From Escherichia coli (GTDB lineage: Bacteria > Pseudomonadota > Gammaproteobacteria > Enterobacterales > Enterobacteriaceae): a stretch of 64,000 bases of DNA. A model generated the notes under the pieces. The model did not search any database. It saw nothing but the letters and a program-made list of their open reading frames with translations, and had not been told where the DNA came from. A program made the position numbers and the translations under genes. How positions within the stretch are numbered: the first letter of the stretch is position 1; each line of letters starts with the position of its first letter. The stretch lies in assembly GCF_051903065.1 (NCBI RefSeq), contig NZ_CP178438.1. One strand, given 5' to 3'. This document shows positions 11,037-60,012 of this stretch, piece by piece.

Positions 11037-11729
11037 TTAATTGTGTCGCTTAAGGGTTTGTGACTGACTGATTAAGACCTTTCCAAAGACCATAAACCGG
11101 TGTTCGTTTTCGCTGGTAATTCCCCATTCGCGGTAAATCTGATTATCAGAAATTACCAGCAGTTTATCAGGTATCATTTGCAGTCGTTTGACGTAAATTT
11201 TATCATCAAAACCAAATACATATATACCATCCCCATCAAACTGATTGATACTGATATCAACGAAGATGAGATCTCCTGGCTCAATGGTTGGACACATACT
11301 GTCCCCACGAACGTTGATAACTTTAATGTGATTTGCTGGTCGTCCACCAAACATCGATACAGCATTATCAGTTCTGTATTCAATGGCATGAATCACATCA
11401 ATGACATCACCGCCCTGGATAAGGCCATTTCCCGCACTGGCACTGACATCCAGCATTTCAATACGGAATACATCCTTCACCTGCGCAACATCCTCACTAA
11501 TACTGTTTTTACATACAGTATTACTTTTGAGGTCTGAGGTAAAGAGATCAGCAATATCAACACCTAAGCTCCTGGCAATATTACTCAGGGCTTGTTCAGT
11601 GAATTGTTTCTGCTTACCTGTTTCGAGGCGCGAGATATTCGCCGCATCCACTCCTATTGCTTCAGCGAGATCGGCGATTTTCATGTTCTTCGCCTGGCGA
11701 AGTTGTCTGACTCGATTTCCTATGTTCAT
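11037..11729 (-). CDS. CI-like prophage repressor (HTH_XRE + S24 LexA-like peptidase domain)
   Basis: 230 aa; N-terminal IGNRVRQLRQAKNMKIADLAEAIGVDAANISRLETGK (HTH); C-terminal ..VRGDSMCPTIEPGDLIFVD...KRL (Ser/Lys autocleavage-type motifs). Confidence 0.85.
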   Translation of the reverse strand: MNIGNRVRQLRQAKNMKIADLAEAIGVDAANISRLETGKQKQFTEQALSNIARSLGVDIADLFTSDLKSNTVCKNSISEDVAQVKDVFRIEMLDVSASAGNGLIQGGDVIDVIHAIEYRTDNAVSMFGGRPANHIKVINVRGDSMCPTIEPGDLIFVDISINQFDGDGIYVFGFDDKIYVKRLQMIPDKLLVISDNQIYREWGITSENEHRFMVFGKVLISQSQTLKRHN

Positions 11730-14459: not shown

Positions 14460-15112
14460 TGAGTAATAAATATTGCCAGGAGCTGGTGGAACTGCGGAAC
14501 AAACCAGCCCATGAACTGAAGGAAGTGGGTGATCAGTGGCGCACGCCGGACAACATTTTCTGGGGAATTAACACCCTGTTTGGCCCGTTTGTTCTGGATC
14601 TGTTCACTGACGGTGATAACGCCAAATGTGCCGCGTATTACACGGCGGAAGACAACGCGCTGGCGCATGACTGGTCAGAACGCCTTGCGGAGCTTAAAGG
14701 TGCTGCCTTTGGTAATCCTCCATACAGCCGCGCCAGTCAGCATGAGGGGCAATACATCACCGGCATGCGTTACATCATGAAACATGCCAGTGCCATGCGT
14801 GATAAGGGCGGGCGCTATGTTTTCCTGATCAAAGCTGCCACCAGCGAAGTGTGGTGGCCGGAAGATGCAGATCATATTGCTTTTATTCGCGGGCGTATTG
14901 GTTTTGAACTGCCTGTCTGGTTTATCCCGAAAGACGAGAAGCAGGTACCGACAGGAGCTTTTTTCGCTGGTGCTATTGCTGTTTTTGACAAGACCTGGAA
15001 GGGACCGGCAATCAGCTACATCGGGCGCGATGAACTTGAGGCATGTGGTGAGGCGTTTCTGGCGCAGGTTCGCCAGCAGGCGGAAAAACTGGTCAGGGAG
15101 ATGGCGGCATGA
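14459..15112 (+). CDS. phage Dam-type N6-adenine DNA methyltransferase
   Basis: Start at the internal ATG overlapping the upstream stop (TAATG); catalytic ..AFGNPPYSRA.. (NPPY) motif. Confidence 0.7.
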   Translation: MSNKYCQELVELRNKPAHELKEVGDQWRTPDNIFWGINTLFGPFVLDLFTDGDNAKCAAYYTAEDNALAHDWSERLAELKGAAFGNPPYSRASQHEGQYITGMRYIMKHASAMRDKGGRYVFLIKAATSEVWWPEDADHIAFIRGRIGFELPVWFIPKDEKQVPTGAFFAGAIAVFDKTWKGPAISYIGRDELEACGEAFLAQVRQQAEKLVREMAA

Positions 15113-15435
15113 CGACATTAACTCAATGCCAGCAGCAGGTGCTGGATATGCTGATTTCTTATCAGAAAGAGCGTGGCTTTCCGCCAACCAATCAGGAGGT
15201 GGCAACCATGCTGGGATACCGTTCAGTGAATGCAGCGGTGGAGCATCTTCGCGCACTGGAGAAAAAAGGCGTCATCACGATAAAGCGTGGCGTGGCCCGG
15301 GGGATAACGCTTCATACCGCGGTGAAGGACGACGACAGCGAGGCGGTCGGGATTATCCGCGCACTGCTTGCCGGTGAGGAAAACGCAAGGCTGCGTGCAA
15401 CCCACTGGTTACATGAGAGGGACCTGAAAGTATGA
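15109..15435 (+). CDS. LexA N-terminal DNA-binding-domain-like protein lacking the peptidase domain
   Basis: 108 aa; MTTLTQCQQQVLDMLISYQKERGFPPTNQEVATMLGYRSVNAAVEHLRALEKKGVITIKRGVARGITL aligns by eye with host LexA residues 1-69 in this same window. Confidence 0.7.
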   Translation: MTTLTQCQQQVLDMLISYQKERGFPPTNQEVATMLGYRSVNAAVEHLRALEKKGVITIKRGVARGITLHTAVKDDDSEAVGIIRALLAGEENARLRATHWLHERDLKV

Positions 15436-19019: not shown

Positions 19020-20072
19020 ATGAAAAATACTGTAAAAATAAACAGTGTTGATTTAATCAACGCTGATTGCCTGCATTTTATTCAGTCCCTGCCTGATGAT
19101 TCCATTGACCTGATTGTTACCGATCCGCCTTACTTCAAGGTGAAACCTAACGGTTGGGACAATCAGTGGAAAGGGGACGAAGATTACCTTAAGTGGCTGG
19201 ACCACTGTCTGGCCCAGTTCTGGCGGGTGTTGAAACCTGCCGGAAGCCTTTACCTGTTCTGTGGGCATCGCCTGGCATCTGATATTGAGATCATGATGCG
19301 TGAACGTTTCAACGTGCTTAACCATATCATCTGGGCGAAGCCGTCCGGACGTTGGAATGGGTGTAATAAAGAAAGTCTGCGCGCATATTTTCCTGCCACA
19401 GAGCGCGTTCTGTTTGCTGAACATTACCAGGGGCCATATCGCGGCAAAAGTGACGGCTATGCGGCAAAAGAAAGGGAACTCAAACAGCACATAATGGCAC
19501 CGCTGATATCGTATTTCAGGGATGCTCGTGCCGAACTGGGTATAACGGCAAAACAAATTGCCGAAGCCACAGGTAAGAAAAATATGGTTTCCCACTGGTT
19601 TGGTGCCAGTCAGTGGCAGTTGCCGAATGAGGCTGACTATCGGAAGTTACAGGCACTGTTTTCCCGTATAGCGGCAGAGAAGTTTCAGGAACAACAACTG
19701 GAACAACCACACCACCAGCTGGTGGCATCTTATGATTCACTGAATCGCAAATATTCTGAATTGCTGGATGAGTTTAAATCTCTCCGGCGCTATTTCTCCG
19801 TATCAGTCTCCGTGCCTTATACCGATGTCTGGACGCATAAGCCCGTTCAGTTCTACCCGGGTAAACATCCGTGCGAGAAACCGACGGATATGCTCCGGCA
19901 AATAATCAATGCCAGTAGTCGACCTGGTGATCTGGTTGCTGATTTCTTTATGGGATCCGGTTCCACAATAAAAGCAGCAATGGCGCTGGGGCGTCGGGCG
20001 TTAGGTGTTGAACTTGAGTCAGAGCGGTTTAATCAGACGGTGAAAGAGGTAAGTGAACTGGTGGGGAAATAA
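19020..20072 (+). CDS. DNA methyltransferase (beta-class N6-adenine or N4-cytosine; DPPY motif)
   Basis: 350 aa; ..DLIVTDPPYF.. (motif IV) near the N-terminus and ..FFMGSGST.. (motif I) near the C-terminus. Confidence 0.75.
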   Translation: MKNTVKINSVDLINADCLHFIQSLPDDSIDLIVTDPPYFKVKPNGWDNQWKGDEDYLKWLDHCLAQFWRVLKPAGSLYLFCGHRLASDIEIMMRERFNVLNHIIWAKPSGRWNGCNKESLRAYFPATERVLFAEHYQGPYRGKSDGYAAKERELKQHIMAPLISYFRDARAELGITAKQIAEATGKKNMVSHWFGASQWQLPNEADYRKLQALFSRIAAEKFQEQQLEQPHHQLVASYDSLNRKYSELLDEFKSLRRYFSVSVSVPYTDVWTHKPVQFYPGKHPCEKPTDMLRQIINASSRPGDLVADFFMGSGSTIKAAMALGRRALGVELESERFNQTVKEVSELVGK

Positions 20073-22494: not shown

Positions 22495-24224
22495 GCCGGA
22501 AATCTTACCCCAACGTAAATGCTGCCAATCAGTATGCCCGTGATGTCGTGCGCGGAAAGATTGTGGCCTGCCAGTTTGTGATTCAGGCCTGCCAGCGCCA
22601 TCTTGATGACCTGATGGAGGAAAAAAGTAAGTCGTTTCGTTACCGCTTCGACAAGGACCTGGCTGAACGGGCCGCGAAATTTATTCAGCTGTTGCCGCAC
22701 ACCAAGGGTGAGTGGGCATTTAAACGGATGCCCATCACGCTGGAGCCGTGGCAGCTATTTGTGATCTGCTGTGCGTTTGGCTGGGTCAATAAAGGCACCC
22801 GGTTGCGCCGCTTCCGGGAGGTGTATACCGAAATTCCCCGTAAGAACGGCAAATCGGCAATCTCTGCCGGTGTTGCCCTGTATTGTTTTGCCTGTGATAA
22901 CGAGTTCGGCGCGGAAGTGTATTCCGGTGCCACGACGGAGAAACAGGCATGGGAAGTCTTTCGTCCGGCACGACTGATGTGTAAACGCACACCCATGCTG
23001 ACGGAAGCGTTCGGGATTGAGGTTAACGCCTCAAACATGAACCGTCCGGAGGATGGTGCGCGGTTTGAACCGCTGATCGGTAACCCCGGTGATGGTTCAT
23101 CACCCCACTGTGCCGTGGTGGATGAATATCACGAGCACGCCACAGATGCGCTTTACACCACGATGCTTACCGGGATGGGGGCGCGACGCCAGCCACTGAT
23201 GTGGGCCATTACCACCGCCGGGTACAACATTGAGGGGCCGTGCTACGACAAACGGCGGGAAGTCATCGAGATGCTCAACGGCTCGGTGCCCAACGATGAA
23301 CTGTTCGGGATCATCTATACCGTTGACGAAGGCGACGACTGGACCGACCCGCAGGTACTTGAAAAAGCTAACCCGAATATCGGTGTGTCGGTTTATCGCG
23401 AGTTTTTGTTAAGCCAGCAGCAACGTGCGAAAAATAACGCCCGTCTGGCAAACGTCTTTAAAACAAAACACCTCAATATCTGGGTGTCGGCGCGTTCGGC
23501 GTATTTCAACCTGGTGAGCTGGCAGAGCTGCGAGAATAAATCACTGACCCTTGAGCAGTTTGAGGGGCAGCCGTGCATTCTGGCCTTTGACCTGGCGCGT
23601 AAGCTGGATATGAACAGTATGGCGCGACTTTATACCCGCGAGATTGACGGTAAAACGCATTACTACAGTGTGGCTCCGCGCTTCTGGGTACCGTATGACA
23701 CGGTGTACAGCGTCGAGAAAAATGAAGATCGCCGGACAGCCGAACGCTTTCAGAAATGGGTGGAAATGGGCGTTCTGACCGTTACCGATGGTGCGGAGGT
23801 GGATTATCGCTACATCCTCGAGGAGGCCAAAGCGGCGAACAAAATCAGCCCGGTCAGTGAGTCACCCATCGACCCCTTCGGGGCGACCGGGCTGTCGCAT
23901 GACCTTGCGGATGAAGACCTGAACCCCATCACCATCATTCAGAACTACACCAACATGTCCGACCCGATGAAAGAGCTGGAAGCGGCAATTGAATCGGGGC
24001 GTTTTCATCATGACGGCAATCCCATCATGACCTGGTGTATCGGCAACGTGGTCGGCAAAACCATTCCGGGTAACGATGATGTGGTGAAGCCCGTCAAGGA
24101 GCAGGCGGAAAACAAAATTGATGGTGCAGTTGCGCTGATTATGGCGGTTGGCAGAGCCATGCTGTACGAGAAAGAAGACACGCTGTCTGATCACATTGAG
24201 TCCTACGGGATCCGCTCGCTTTAA
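22491..24224 (+). CDS. terminase large subunit
   Basis: 577 aa; size, position and ATPase/nuclease-like organisation. Confidence 0.8.
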
Positions 24225-24235
24225 CTGAGGTAATT

Positions 24236-24418
24236 ATGATCATGCTGATTCTCGCGCCTCTGGTGGGCGTGCTGGGTGCGCTTTTGCTGGCGTATGGTGC
24301 CTGGCTGATTTATCCCCCGGCTGGGTTTGTTGTTGCCGGGGCGCTGTGCCTGTTCTGGTCGTGGCTGGTGGCGCGATATCTCGACCGTACACAGCCGTCT
24401 GTCGGCGGAGGTAAATAG
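24236..24418 (+). CDS. small membrane protein (hypothetical)
   Basis: 60 aa with two hydrophobic segments, between terminase and portal. Confidence 0.35.
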
Positions 24419-39471: not shown

Positions 39472-40512
39472 ATGCATCGTATAGACACGAAAACCGCGCA
39501 GAAGGATAAGTTCGGCGCGGGTAAGAACGGTTTTACCCGTGGTAACCCCCAGACCGGCACACCTGCCACCGATCTGGATGATGACTACTTTGACATGTTG
39601 CAGGAGGAGCTTTGCAGCGTTGTGGAGGCATCAGGTGCCAGCCTGGAGAAGGGGCGGCATGACCAGTTACTTACCGCACTTCGCGCGCTGCTGTTAAGCC
39701 GCAAGAATCCGTTTGGCGATATCAAATCGGATGGCACGGTGAAAACAGCTCTCGAAAACCTTGGTTTGGCTAATTACGCAGACAAAGCAAGTCTGGCGAA
39801 TCAGGAGTTTTCTGGTCCCGTATCATCTAAAGACTGCGTTACCGCAACATCGGCAGATGGGGTAACCCGCAAAGTATCGCTTAATGCCAGTACGGGTTTG
39901 AAGATAGTTATTTATGATGGCGGAACTTACAAGGGGGCAATAAACATCCCGGCAAAAGACGGGACAATGGCACTTGTATCTGATTTGGCTAATTTTGCTG
40001 ATAAATTGAGTGCTTCTGAGCAATATTTTAAAGGACCTGTTTCATCCGGGGATGGGCTCATAGCAAAATATGGCACCGCAAAAATAATTCTGTCAGCCCA
40101 AAACGGTCAGAGAATTGTTGTTTATACAAACGACACTTACCGTGGAGCTATTAATATTCCACTTCGTGACGGAACTATGGCGCTCCTGGATGATGTTACT
40201 AATGTTAGCGCAACGCTGCTGGGTATATCTCAGTCATGGCAGAACGTGAAAGCCAGCCGTAGTGCCGGGGTTACGTATACCAACTCAACAGGCAGGCCCA
40301 TTGCAGTTTCAATCGCCGGAATAATGGCAACACGTCAGAATGGAGTTCAGTTGTCACTTGCCGTTAATGGCACAGAGGCTTCAAGTTTTGCCGTGACTGA
40401 CAGCTCGTTTGACATCAGGGGTAACGTATTTGCGATTGTGCCACCAGGAGCAACTTACAAACTTACAGCAAATAACATTAATTCTATTTTGACCTGGTCG
40501 GAGCTTCGCTAA
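39472..40512 (+). CDS. tail fibre protein
   Basis: 346 aa; conserved tail-fibre N-terminus ([47 protein letters not shown]..) and internal ~60-aa repeats. Confidence 0.75.
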
Positions 40513-40889
40513 TGAATACGGTAATCAAAGAGCAAAAATTCTTTAAGGACTCGGCCGGTGTGATTTTTTGCATCGACATCATGGAAATGAATGCTGAGTC
40601 ATGGGGTGAAGAAGTACAGGCCGGATGGCAGGAAATTAGTGCCGATGAAGCGCTATTAATTGCTAATCCACCGCCTACAGAGGAACAGCTATTTGAACAG
40701 GTTAGGGCGCAGAAACAGGCCCTGATTTCCGAGGCGACTGCAATTATAGATCCACTTAAGGATGCACTGGATGGTGGCTATATCGACGATGCAGACAAAC
40801 CAAGACTGACTGAATGGCAAAAGTACCGCTATGAGGTGACGAAAGTTGATCCGGGAAAACCTGTGTGGCCACCGAAGCCTACAGAATAG
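40512..40889 (+). CDS. tail fibre assembly protein (short)
   Basis: 125 aa directly after the fibre gene with ATGA overlap. Confidence 0.6.
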   Translation: MNTVIKEQKFFKDSAGVIFCIDIMEMNAESWGEEVQAGWQEISADEALLIANPPPTEEQLFEQVRAQKQALISEATAIIDPLKDALDGGYIDDADKPRLTEWQKYRYEVTKVDPGKPVWPPKPTE

Positions 40890-40964
40890 GAACATTTTTT
40901 ATAACCATCAAAAATCTGGTGATATTTCGCCTCTTCTCCTGTTTTTACAACAGGAGAAGCACTC

Positions 40965-41528
40965 ATGATTTACGGGTATGTTCGTGTATCAACAAATCAT
41001 CAGGATACAGAGTTGCAACGTCTTGCACTTGAGTCAGCTGGCTGTGAGCGAATTTATGAAGAATATGCCAGTGGCAGAACAGCTAATCGCCCTGTGTTAA
41101 AGGAATTAATTACGGTGATGAAAAGTGGAGATGAGTTGATTGTCTGGAAGTTAGATCGGATAGGGAGAAATGTGCTGCATGCGCTATTTATGTTTCAAAA
41201 TCTGCACGAAAAAGGTGTTAATTTTCGGAGTATTACAGATGGCGTAGACCTGAAAACAGCAAGTGGTCGCTATAATTTCCGTAATATTCTTTCTGCTGCG
41301 CAGTATGAATCTGATTTGAATAGCGAGCGAACTTTAGCTGGTTTGGCTATTGCCAGATCCAAAGGCCGGATTGGTGGGCGTAGACCGAAGTTTAGCGACG
41401 AGCAGTGGCAACAGATGGGAGCGCTCATAGCGGCAGGGAAATCACGGCGTTATGTTGCACGTATCTATAACGTTGGGCTATCAACCCTATATAAACGATT
41501 TCCTGTTACTGGCATTCAAACGAAATAA
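40965..41528 (+). CDS. Pin/Gin/Hin-family serine DNA invertase
   Basis: 187 aa; MIYGYVRVSTNHQDTELQ.. with catalytic Ser in YVRVST and C-terminal HTH. Confidence 0.9.
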   Translation: MIYGYVRVSTNHQDTELQRLALESAGCERIYEEYASGRTANRPVLKELITVMKSGDELIVWKLDRIGRNVLHALFMFQNLHEKGVNFRSITDGVDLKTASGRYNFRNILSAAQYESDLNSERTLAGLAIARSKGRIGGRRPKFSDEQWQQMGALIAAGKSRRYVARIYNVGLSTLYKRFPVTGIQTK

Positions 41529-41671
41529 TTTAAAAGCAATTTAAAGAGTTATTTGTCTAATGTTGGAAGCCGCAGCCACGTCGTATGCAAGAACGTGCTG
41601 CGGCTGGCTGGCGAACTTTCGATAGTGCGAGTATTGAATGATTTCCAGCCGTTACCGATTTTACGTGTTAA

Positions 41672-41920
41672 TTAGTGAACAAACCACTCGTCAGCAGATT
41701 CCCAGGTATCTTTCAGAGTCTCCTGAACAAAAGTTTTTGCAGAATCCTTATCTGCGGTGCGTGTAACAGAAAGGCCATCGTTGCTGGTGGCTTTTACGAT
41801 CACCTCTACATCGTCATAACGTTTACTGATGCGTCGGGTTAATTCTTCCTTTAACGCATCCACAGCACCGGTTGGCATTTTAGTCATTTTTTCTTTGGCT
41901 ATGCAGATTTCAATACGCAT
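41672..41920 (-). CDS. DinI-family protein
   Basis: 82 aa; [11 protein letters not shown]...[10 protein letters not shown] matches the recalled DinI pattern (MRIEVTIAK...ETWESADDWFV). Confidence 0.85.
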
Positions 41921-41933
41921 AAAAGTCCCTCTA

Positions 41934-41979
41934 TACTGTGTTTGTATACAGTATTATTTTTAACTGTATAGATAAACAG
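41934..41979. promoter_or_regulatory. two LexA (SOS) boxes upstream of the dinI-like gene
   Basis: TACTGTGTTTGTATACAGTA (41934-41953, perfect CTGT-N8-ACAG palindrome) and CTGTATAGATAAACAG (41964-41979). Confidence 0.8.
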
Positions 41980-41981
41980 TG

Positions 41982-43079
41982 TCAAGAGGCCTTATTTCTG
42001 CTCCTTTGGAGCTCTTCAAAACGATTATGTAAAGATTTCGGATACAGTTCGGTATATACCTGCCATAGCACGTTTAATGAACGATGCCCTGTAACCTGGG
42101 CGACTTCCTCAATACTAAAACCAGCCTCAAATAAGCGACTTGCCCCTTCTCTACGCAAATCATGGTATCGCAGATCTTTAATACCTAATTTGCTTCTTAC
42201 CCTCTGGAATCCCGCAGTAACAGAAGTGCTGTTATATGGAAAAATGAATTCTGATTTTTTGGGTTGTCGTTGGACGATATCCCAGGCTTCCCCAAGCAAG
42301 GCTACTTTCATATGGTTGCCTTCCTTTTTACGTGGATCTTTCCTGTCTCTTACGAGTATGGATTTTTGTTCCTGATCGAGATCCTCCCATCGTAATCGGC
42401 ATACTTCACCGATTCGCATACATGACCACACAGAAAATTTGAGGATATCAACGAACGGAATTTTTGAGCATTTATGTGTAGATCGTTGTTGAAGACCTTC
42501 AATGAGCATGTCCAGTTCATCAGATGCCGGTCTACGATTACGACGATTTGATTTACCAATTAAACCAAGTTTAAGTAGATATGGACGAGCGGCTTTTGCT
42601 GGGTTTGATGTGTAATTAATTCCATATACAGGTTTGGCAGCATCCAGAACACTGCCAAGATAACTAACATCGTGGCTAACTGTAGCTGGACCTGCACCAG
42701 CGTTGTTTCTTAGCCTGCAATGTTCAATTACGTCATTTTCTGTCAGTTCAGATAGTTTGAGCGCGGAGACGTCACTATCCATAAGCAGTTCCAGCACATA
42801 TCTTTTAGTACGGCCTGCTTTACCTCCGGCATTTGGGTCATTTAAATATTTGTGTAGTAAGTCACGGACTGTAAGTCCGTCAACTGCATTTGATGATGGA
42901 ATGCCATATAGATCTAATTCCATCACTTTCTGTGTGCCCCATGTTTTGGCATGAGCATGTTTAGGGAATGTTTTACTTTCCCTGTAAGTGATAACACCTT
43001 TTTCTTTGATAATCACATTACAGCGATAGCGTGGTGTGCCATCGGATTTTAGTCGTTTCTCTATGTTATAGTATGCCAT
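41982..43079 (-). CDS. tyrosine integrase (dusA-targeting type)
   Basis: 365 aa; C-terminal ..HDLRREGASRLFEAGFSIEEVAQVTGHRSLNVLWQVYTELY with R..H..R..Y-type catalytic residues; abuts the dusA 5' end. Confidence 0.9.
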   Translation of the reverse strand: MAYYNIEKRLKSDGTPRYRCNVIIKEKGVITYRESKTFPKHAHAKTWGTQKVMELDLYGIPSSNAVDGLTVRDLLHKYLNDPNAGGKAGRTKRYVLELLMDSDVSALKLSELTENDVIEHCRLRNNAGAGPATVSHDVSYLGSVLDAAKPVYGINYTSNPAKAARPYLLKLGLIGKSNRRNRRPASDELDMLIEGLQQRSTHKCSKIPFVDILKFSVWSCMRIGEVCRLRWEDLDQEQKSILVRDRKDPRKKEGNHMKVALLGEAWDIVQRQPKKSEFIFPYNSTSVTAGFQRVRSKLGIKDLRYHDLRREGASRLFEAGFSIEEVAQVTGHRSLNVLWQVYTELYPKSLHNRFEELQRSRNKAS

Positions 43080-43160: not shown

Positions 43161-43271
43161 TTCAAAAATGCACGATAATCATGAAACACAAAAAATTAAT
43201 CAAACCAGCGTGATGCCTGAAAAAACTGGTGTTTACTGGAATTCTCGGTTTAGCATTGCTCCTATGCTCGA
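43161..43271. repeat. attR-side dusA 5' sequence (imperfect direct repeat of 4751-4861)
   Basis: Alignment by eye; this copy is fused in frame to the dusA body. Confidence 0.7.
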
Positions 43272-59002: not shown

Positions 59003-59467
59003 ATGGAAAAGAAATTACCCCGCATTAAAGCGCTGCTAACCCCCGGCGAAGTGGCGAAACGCAGCGGTGTGGCGGTATCGGCGCTGCATTTCTATGAAAG
59101 CAAAGGGTTGATTACCAGTGTCCGTAATAGCGGCAATCAGCGCCGATATAAACGTGATGTGTTGCGATATGTCGCAATTATCAAAATTGCTCAGCGTATT
59201 GGCATTCCGCTGGCGACCATTGGTGAAGCGTTTGGCGTGTTGCCCGAAGGGCATACGTTAAGTGCGAAAGAGTGGAAACAGCTTTCGTCCCAATGGCGAG
59301 AAGAGTTGGATCGGCGCATTCATACCTTAGTGGCGCTGCGTGACGAACTGGATGGATGTATTGGTTGTGGCTGCCTTTCGCGCAGTGATTGCCCGTTGCG
59401 TAACCCGGGCGACCGCTTAGGAGAAGAAGGTACCGGCGCACGCTTACTGGAAGATGAACAAAACTAA
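59003..59467 (+). CDS. soxR: MerR-family redox sensor SoxR
   Basis: 154 aa; HTH N-terminus and C-terminal [12 protein letters not shown] [2Fe-2S] motif. Confidence 0.95.
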
Positions 59468-59495
59468 AGCGCCACAAGGGCGCTTTAGTTTGTTT
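59465..59495 (+). terminator. rho-independent terminator after soxR
   Basis: AAAGCGCC-acaag-GGCGCTTT followed by a T-rich run. Confidence 0.65.
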
Positions 59496-60012
59496 TCCGG
59501 TCTTTGTCTTTCTCTCTATCCCGCTGGTACACAGGAGGGTTTCCCCCGACGTCAACACACCTCATTCGAGCACGTGGTGGAGGTTCCGGTTGGTGTTGAT
59601 GCTTTAATTGTATGTCACCGGCGTTTCTTCGCCAGTGTAAAAGTATACTTTTTAGCCGCAATATTTTTGTCATCTCAGACGATTTTTTATCGCAATCCAG
59701 AACGGTGTACGGCTCGATAACGCTGCAATCTTGCGCATCGACGATAACGTTTGCGCATCAATTGCCTGGTTTTTCATCGTCAAGACAATAAAAGAGAAAA
59801 AAGCAGCAAACTTCGGTTGAAAAAGCCGCTATGATCGCCGGATAATCGTTTGCTTTTTTTACCACCCGTTTTGTATGCGCGGAGCTAAACGTTTGCTTTT
59901 TTGCGACGCACCAAATTGTCGCAAACCTGGAGCAGGAAGATAACGTTTCGCTGGCAGGGGATTGTCCGCCACGCATCTTGACGAAAATTAAACTCTCAGG
60001 GGATGTTTTCTT

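Follow-up and report, generated by a model that had tools for sequence, protein, structure and literature searches.

A DinI-like gene preceded by two predicted LexA operators lies at one end of a prophage in the window, the 64,000-nucleotide stretch of DNA that we analyzed. The window is a piece of the E. coli chromosome that begins at the lexA promoter and continues through dinF, yjbJ, and zur into a prophage of ~38 kb, the insertion site of which is the 5' end of dusA. Early and late regulation of this prophage are lambdoid, its contractile tail is Mu/P2-like, and its gene order is matched by related prophages in RefSeq genomes. The ends of the prophage are marked by a duplication of the 5' end of dusA:

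4756-4862 (107 nt): displaced dusA 5' fragment, 83% identical to 43165-43271
[quoted passage not shown]

The prophage thus brings with it a replacement 5' end for dusA, the host and phage-supplied copies being 83% identical over those 107 nt. The features with which we are chiefly concerned occupy a short interval next to the integrase gene:

41568-41605, minus strand: stem-loop of the 3' untranslated region, in the gap that separates the DinI-like gene from the convergent invertase gene
41672-41920, minus strand: gene for the DinI-like protein, 82 aa with an ATG start (ORF list, Pfam, PDB, PHROG)
41926-41932, minus strand: Shine-Dalgarno sequence AGAGGGA, read from the sequence, 5 nt upstream of the ATG
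41934-41953: proximal LexA box, TACTGTGTTTGTATACAGTA, ending 13 nt before the ATG and covering the predicted transcription start
41956-41962, minus strand: -10 element (consensus scan), either TAAAAA (spacer, 17 nt) or AAAAAT (spacer, 18 nt)
41962-41981: distal LexA box, the 20-mer AACTGTATAGATAAACAGTG, with its CTGT-N8-ACAG core CTGTATAGATAAACAG at 41964-41979, filling the spacer between the -35 and -10 elements
41980-41985, minus strand: -35 element TTGACA (consensus scan), overlapping the integrase stop codon
41982-43079, minus strand: dusA-type tyrosine integrase gene (ORF list, RefSeq annotation of identical DNA)

The integrase stop codon and the ATG of the DinI-like gene are separated by 61 nt, and both boxes fall inside this interval, as the preliminary description of this DNA had stated; its placement of the gene directly downstream of the integrase is likewise correct in the direction of transcription, which is that of the minus strand. 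Read on that strand, the interval consists of TTGACA, then CTGTTTATCTATACAG, TTAAAAATAA, TACTGTATACAAACACAGTA, and TAGAGGGACTTTT, and then the ATG.

The assignment of the open reading frame to the DinI family was borne out. The protein matches the Pfam DinI model (PF06183) with an E value of 1.4e-19 over positions 1 to 63 of 63, its full length; it matches the E. coli DinI structures 1GHH/7YWA with an E value of 3.7e-13, aligned to residues 1 to 79; and it matches phrog_189, "RecA filament binding protein DinI," with an E value of 5.7e-31. It is a small single-domain protein, homologous to the solved DinI structure over its whole length. With host DinI (b1061; 1GHH, 7YWA) it shares its Pfam family, its length class, and the TWESADxWF C-terminal helix, yet it is only 46% identical to the K-12 protein, and with 73 bits it scores under the 111-bit cut-off of the NCBIfam DinI equivalog model (NF007893), so that we call it a paralogue whose equivalence to host DinI is not established.

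The cryo-electron microscopy structure of the RecA-DinI complex offers a benchmark for judging whether such a paralogue could still bind RecA. In this structure, L13, L21, W71, W77, and F78 of DinI form a pocket for RecA F203, while an acidic patch made of E24, E69, and D76 faces RecA K232/R243/K245 (PMC9926225). The equivalent residues in our alignments are M15, L23, W73, W79, and F80 for the pocket and E26, D71, and E78 for the patch; five of these eight RecA-contact residues are identical, and the remaining three are conservative replacements. The dN/dS ratio of the open reading frame against diverged copies is 0.02 to 0.23, which indicates a real gene under purifying selection. Along one branch, that of BP-4795 and JLK-2012, an Arg stands where DinI has W71, and RecA binding has perhaps been lost in some branches.

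We scored LexA sites throughout the window with a position-weight matrix derived from 24 operators of E. coli. Against the consensus TACTGT-N8-ACAGTA, the proximal box has no mismatches and the distal box has two, and their matrix scores are 22.9 and 23.2 bits, respectively. Three host operators in the same window provide an internal yardstick:

119-138 and 140-159: the two host lexA operators, 20.3 and 19.7 bits (matrix scan)
55490: host uvrA/ssb operator, 20.4 bits (matrix scan)

Seven sites in the window reach at least 19.7 bits, namely, these three host operators and four sites in the prophage, two of which belong to the DinI-like gene; the next-best site scores 12.6 bits, and simulated sequence yields 0.16 sites of at least 15 bits per 64 kb. 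The simpler CTGT-N8-ACAG motif occurs 5 times in the window against an expectation of 0.69, a count that none of 100 shuffles reached. Both boxes at the DinI-like gene are therefore predicted LexA operators of genuine appearance, with scores in the range of proven operators. The preliminary description had called the proximal box a perfect palindrome; the box is where it was said to be, but its perfect symmetry is limited to the 6-nt arms TACTGT/ACAGTA, the central 8 bases not being palindromic. The second CTGT-N8-ACAG box of that account is present as described.

Both boxes overlap the sole good consensus sigma-70 promoter, and the transcription start that we give is predicted from it. The best reading, TTGACA-18 nt-AAAAAT at 41985 to 41956, has 10 of 12 consensus matches, and the record of phage mEp460 (JQ182728) annotates the same promoter. 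A purine-rich block stands at the Shine-Dalgarno position in all aligned homologues. The consensus promoter scan, taken alone, does not rise above shuffles, and this is the one observation that might favor the view that the boxes arose by chance or that the gene is a decaying, functionless relic. We give that view almost no credence: the boxes outscore authentic host operators and nearly all simulations, and the boxes, the -35 hexamer, and the coding sequence are all conserved across diverged cassettes, the last with the low dN/dS values given above.

Downstream of the gene, the stem-loop at 41568 to 41605 is the likely 3' end of the DinI-like transcript. The 131-nt 3' region folds at −36.4 kcal/mol (z, −4.1); a terminator scan called no canonical intrinsic terminator after the DinI-like gene because the stem-loop has no T-run. 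The stem-loop is part of a 97-nt element (41567-41664) that is 82 to 99% identical to intergenic DNA of lambda, phi80, HK106, HK75, and many Stx phages, the lambda copy lying at 24160 to 24256 in the b region. This element matches no Rfam family, and the Rfam scan of the whole window found nothing in the 3' region of the DinI-like gene; its sole match is an ordinary host feature, the Hfq-binding small RNA sraL, at 59460 to 59600 on the minus strand (RF01408, 153 bits).

Comparison of the cassette among phages reveals how precisely it is delimited. Alignment of the cassettes of mEp460, 2H10, Stx2_EH2201, PhiR12_1, and PhiR5_1 shows that the -35 hexamer is kept along with both boxes, the distal one having CTGG variants; all three elements persist even where the dS of the open reading frame is 0.8 to 1.1, as it is in PhiR12_1 and PhiR5_1. 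In JLK-2012, both boxes are degenerate. Two further phages were left out of the alignment, Stx2a_JNE122536 (no alignment at the guessed coordinates) and vB_EcoM-683R1 (no intact DinI open reading frame). Upstream of the -35 hexamer the sequences of the aligned phages are unrelated, while everything downstream of it is conserved, and since the homology starts at this hexamer, we place the upstream edge of the cassette there.

The two boxes differ in how widely they are kept. A box in the proximal position, 13 to 22 nt from the start codon, precedes K-12 dinI, its DinI-like counterparts in phages of E. coli, Klebsiella, and Aeromonas, and that of mEp237; in the Yersinia phage YeP1, the box precedes a small open reading frame upstream of the DinI gene. 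Host dinI thus resembles the prophage gene in having a LexA box at the equivalent spot just upstream of the ribosome-binding site, but it lacks the second, distal box in the promoter spacer, which has no counterpart upstream of more distant phage homologues either. On this comparison, only the E. coli cassette at the att end has the distal box.

The cassette is not special to this prophage; it is widespread and already annotated. The block from int to the DinI-like gene is 97 to 100% identical in phages SKA5, mEp460, and Lys8385Vzw and is present at 80% or more query coverage in 716 of 5,426 complete E. coli genomes, and the cassette alone is found in 1,828 of these 5,426 genomes, in up to 7 places per genome. 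A tblastn search recovered it in 133 phage records, among them many Stx1 and Stx2 phages and VT1-Sakai. The closest relative is mEp460_021, a 100% identical protein in the same cassette with an annotated promoter, where the DNA from int to dinI is 97% identical; the VT1-Sakai protein H0001, "DNA-damage-inducible protein I," is 95% identical. No LexA boxes are listed in the feature tables of mEp460 and the other phage records that we retrieved, and the literature that we searched yielded no functional study of the E. coli DinI cassette. The finding as it stands, then, does not introduce a novel type of element: a DinI paralogue that was already annotated in prophages, in a cassette of a known kind, has been reidentified. 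What is new is that the promoter spacer holds a predicted second operator for LexA and that the unit is apparently mobile from exactly its -35 hexamer.

This mobility is evident from the company that the cassette keeps. Its neighbor is int in mEp460 and SKA5, nleC in Stx2_EH2201, and espV in JLK-2012, and the cargo genes adjoining it in phages include nleC, espV, and an avirulence-protein gene. The unit has its own promoter and its own 3' structure in otherwise unrelated genomic contexts, which are the marks of a phage moron. Such an architecture, at a prophage end among cargo genes, invites a reading as lysogenic conversion, in which an extra dose of DinI would stabilize RecA filaments and restrain UmuD cleavage, thereby raising the survival of the lysogen or lowering its mutagenesis, with no specific role in the phage cycle. 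The wide distribution of the cassette, the purifying selection on its gene, and the conserved RecA contacts agree with this reading. The host, however, already has dinI, and the additional distal operator points to selection for a silencing stricter than that of the host gene, which is not obviously needed for a benefit to the host; we therefore hold this reading to be possible but doubtful.

An equally tentative reading, in our estimate about level with the one just described, is that the cassette tunes the induction of its own prophage, with the DinI-like protein made during the SOS response altering the rate at which RecA* cleaves the repressor and hence the threshold or timing of induction. 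The repressor gene of this prophage is as follows:

11037-11729, minus strand: CI-like repressor of 230 aa with HTH domains and a Pfam Peptidase_S24 domain (E value, 8.7e-19)

Five homologues all retain its Ala-Gly, the Ser of GDSM, and the Lys of VKRL, and a repressor that combines an HTH with such an S24 domain makes RecA-stimulated self-cleavage the likely trigger of induction. This self-cleaving type is what makes tuning of the prophage's own induction plausible, and the repressor would accordingly be a RecA* substrate with which the DinI-like protein competes. DinI and lambda CI share elements of the RecA groove, two strong operators predict expression late, when repressor cleavage is decided, and the cassette is carried by many inducible lambdoid and Stx phages. 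On the other side, the same cassette accompanies different immunity regions in up to 7 copies per genome, which a general RecA-directed function fits better than one matched to a single repressor, and the published deletions of dinI homologues in Gifsy prophages had no effect on induction.

Those Gifsy homologues are a precedent. In Gifsy-1, -2, and -3, the dinI homologue follows a LexA box and heads a LexA-controlled operon in which an antirepressor is encoded as well; a tagged Gifsy-2 homologue accumulates after mitomycin C, and when the homologue was removed from Gifsy-1 or Gifsy-3 by a nonpolar deletion, neither the level nor the rate of induction changed significantly (Lemire et al. 2011, PMC3121763). 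A second study lists the Gifsy homologues among SOS genes, places their LexA box 19 bp from the ATG, and gives a 4.5- to 23-fold induction by nalidixic acid (Mérida-Floriano et al. 2021, PMC8072944). Besides Gifsy-1 and Gifsy-3, we found no published tests of prophage dinI homologues on induction in the literature searched. The Gifsy genes resemble ours in that both encode DinI paralogues, are carried by a prophage, and are closely preceded by a LexA box. They differ in being first in an operon with an antirepressor (gfoA/gftA) and irsA, downstream of replication genes, in prophages whose repressors are not cleaved, whereas the E. coli gene stands alone at the att end with two boxes, no downstream open reading frame, and a self-cleaving S24 repressor. 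Since Gifsy prophages combine antirepressors with uncleaved repressors, the Gifsy deletion test does not address competition for RecA*.

The same precedent raises the question of whether the cassette could be an antirepressor module of the Tum or Gifsy type, in which LexA controls a protein that inactivates the repressor by binding to it. In phage 186, the Tum antirepressor has a DinI-like C-terminal half, and LexA-controlled DinI-like sequences are either fused to an antirepressor, as in 186, or adjoin antirepressor genes, as in Gifsy, Fels-2, and PSP3 (PMC3121763). Tum, together with the split tum genes of Fels-2 and PSP3, shares with our protein LexA repression, a DinI-like segment, and a PHROG family, but Tum (~146 aa) has an N-terminal antirepressor half that is absent from the 82-aa protein, and there is no adjacent antirepressor open reading frame. 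Our protein aligns to positions 71 to 149 of the 151-position phrog_189 profile, which is the DinI half only; between the stop of its gene (41672) and the convergent invertase gene there is no minus-strand open reading frame of at least 20 aa; and the self-cleavage apparatus of the repressor is intact. We rejected an antirepressor role on the size of the protein and the lack of a downstream minus-strand partner of at least 20 aa, and consider it very improbable.

The explanation that we favor, and think probable, is that the locus is a self-contained, LexA-repressed moron cassette at the att end of a dusA-integrated prophage, encoding a DinI paralogue that acts as a modest brake on the late SOS response. 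In an undamaged lysogen, two LexA dimers would keep the DinI-like gene tightly off and would keep transcription of the integrase gene from running on into it. Given the strength of both operators, derepression would probably come only with deep LexA depletion, that is, late or after heavy damage. The DinI-like protein would then bind in the groove of RecA-ssDNA filaments, at the L2-loop pocket and the basic patch that are used by LexA, UmuD, and CI-type repressors, substrates that are known to use the same RecA groove elements as DinI (PMC9926225). Added to the host DinI pool, it would stabilize filaments and compete with the self-cleaving substrates that bind weakly and react slowly, UmuD and the S24 repressor of the prophage itself. 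The net effect would most likely be a modest brake or delay on late SOS outputs and not an on/off switch. The direction of the effect of the DinI-like protein on RecA* is uncertain; Yasuda et al. reportedly observed in 1998 that an excess of DinI inhibits coprotease activity. Structural work indicates, for its part, that DinI stabilizes RecA filaments (PMC9926225). The preliminary description had proposed that the phage uses this gene to modulate the signal for its own induction, and, taken whole, its observation is confirmed and its interpretation is partly supported.

Two other predicted operators and one further gene of the prophage bear on LexA control:

11501-11520: LexA box TACTGTTTTTACATACAGTA inside the repressor gene (11037-11729, minus strand), 25.4 bits, the top matrix score in the window
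19028-19047: LexA box TACTGTAAAAATAAACAGTG, 22.6 bits, beginning 8 nt after the ATG of a late-region DNA methylase open reading frame (19020-20072, plus strand)
15109-15435, plus strand: 108-aa protein consisting of a LexA DNA-binding domain only (Pfam E value, 3.8e-19; PDB 1LEA E value, 6.2e-16)

The box inside the repressor gene falls in the linker between the HTH and S24 domains, and its arms show little or no variation across SfII, ST64B, Klebsiella P7641 and Kp4872-1, and phage Eeyore (68 to 96% protein identity), while the linker residues around it vary. No consensus promoter overlaps this box on either strand; by eye there are weak flanking hexamers only. The methylase gene lies just upstream of the lysis genes, and its box is conserved in Flotzy, Stx2a_1447, phiP27, and Hafnia yong2 (74 to 85% DNA identity). 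The two coding-region boxes are read in the same frame and yield a shared peptide pattern, N-T-V-x-x-x-N-S, as NTVCKNS in the repressor and NTVKINS in the methylase, which suggests that the DNA motif dictates the local protein sequence at both. LexA binding at prophage endolysin promoters has been reported (PMC9621596); we rejected that report as a precedent for the box at 19028, as the boxes that it quotes (e.g., CTGACGTACCTGACAA) are weak and unrelated.

The four top-scoring prophage boxes thus lie at three loci, two in the promoter of the DinI-like gene, one in the cI linker, and one in the first codons of the methylase, and each is conserved in distant relatives. The literature that we searched contained no paper describing the cI box, the methylase box, or the function of the LexA-DBD protein. 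In our judgment, the cI and methylase sites are at least as interesting as the DinI cassette itself.

The LexA-DBD protein has a short unrelated tail and lacks the S24 cleavage/dimerization domain. Its recognition helix, SVNAAVEHL, is nearly identical to that of LexA, with residues matching LexA S39, N41, A42, and E45, and its gene sits between an adenine methylase gene and rusA in the early-right operon. It occurs, already annotated, in 61 phage records (mEp460, SfII, SfV, cdtI, and Stx2c phages), many of which also carry the DinI cassette. The LexA-DBD paralogue on which the preliminary description drew therefore exists, but its tie to the DinI-like gene is one of co-occurrence in related phages only. 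The protein is absent from ST64B, which has the box inside cI, so this box does not depend on it. An uncleavable LexA-DBD might nonetheless serve a LexA-box circuit private to the phage, reoccupying prophage and host SOS boxes after the loss of LexA, silencing the DinI-like gene again, and reshaping cI and late transcription in lytic growth; we offer this circuit as an unlikely, speculative possibility.

A role of the DinI-like protein in lytic growth or infection, where it would protect intermediates of phage recombination or replication, or would dampen either the RecA-dependent responses of the host or the induction of competing prophages, seems to us more improbable still. By gene order, once excision has circularized the genome, the leftward early operon is followed downstream, across attP, by int and the DinI-like gene, and the presence of the uncleavable LexA-DBD gene in the early-right operon also speaks for such a role. 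The argument is, however, a positional one only, and strong LexA operators would be roadblocks to this transcription until LexA is gone.

If the cassette alters RecA* as the favored explanation holds, then one third of sequenced E. coli strains carry at least one extra SOS-modulating gene, and EHEC-type strains carry as many as 7 per genome. This could move the threshold at which prophages, Shiga-toxin phages among them, are induced and the threshold for SOS mutagenesis, with a bearing on antibiotic-triggered toxin release and on the evolution of resistance.

Two minor observations concern the neighbors of the cassette. In JLK-2012 (locus 592-2253) and BP-4795 (locus 248-893), the cassette lies directly upstream of an effector or avirulence gene on the same strand (espV and ORF84, respectively), an arrangement in which SOS-driven read-through into effector genes is conceivable; the LexA boxes of both cassettes are partly degenerate. 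In our window, the cassette is preceded by a tail-fiber gene, a tail-fiber assembly gene, and a Hin/Gin-type DNA invertase gene (40965-41528), which together occupy 39472 to 41528. Related prophages have an inverted alternative tail-fiber assembly/fiber segment at the equivalent place (relative locus 41982-42723), and the region from 39472 to 41528 looks like an invertible host-range switch, possibly reduced in the window.
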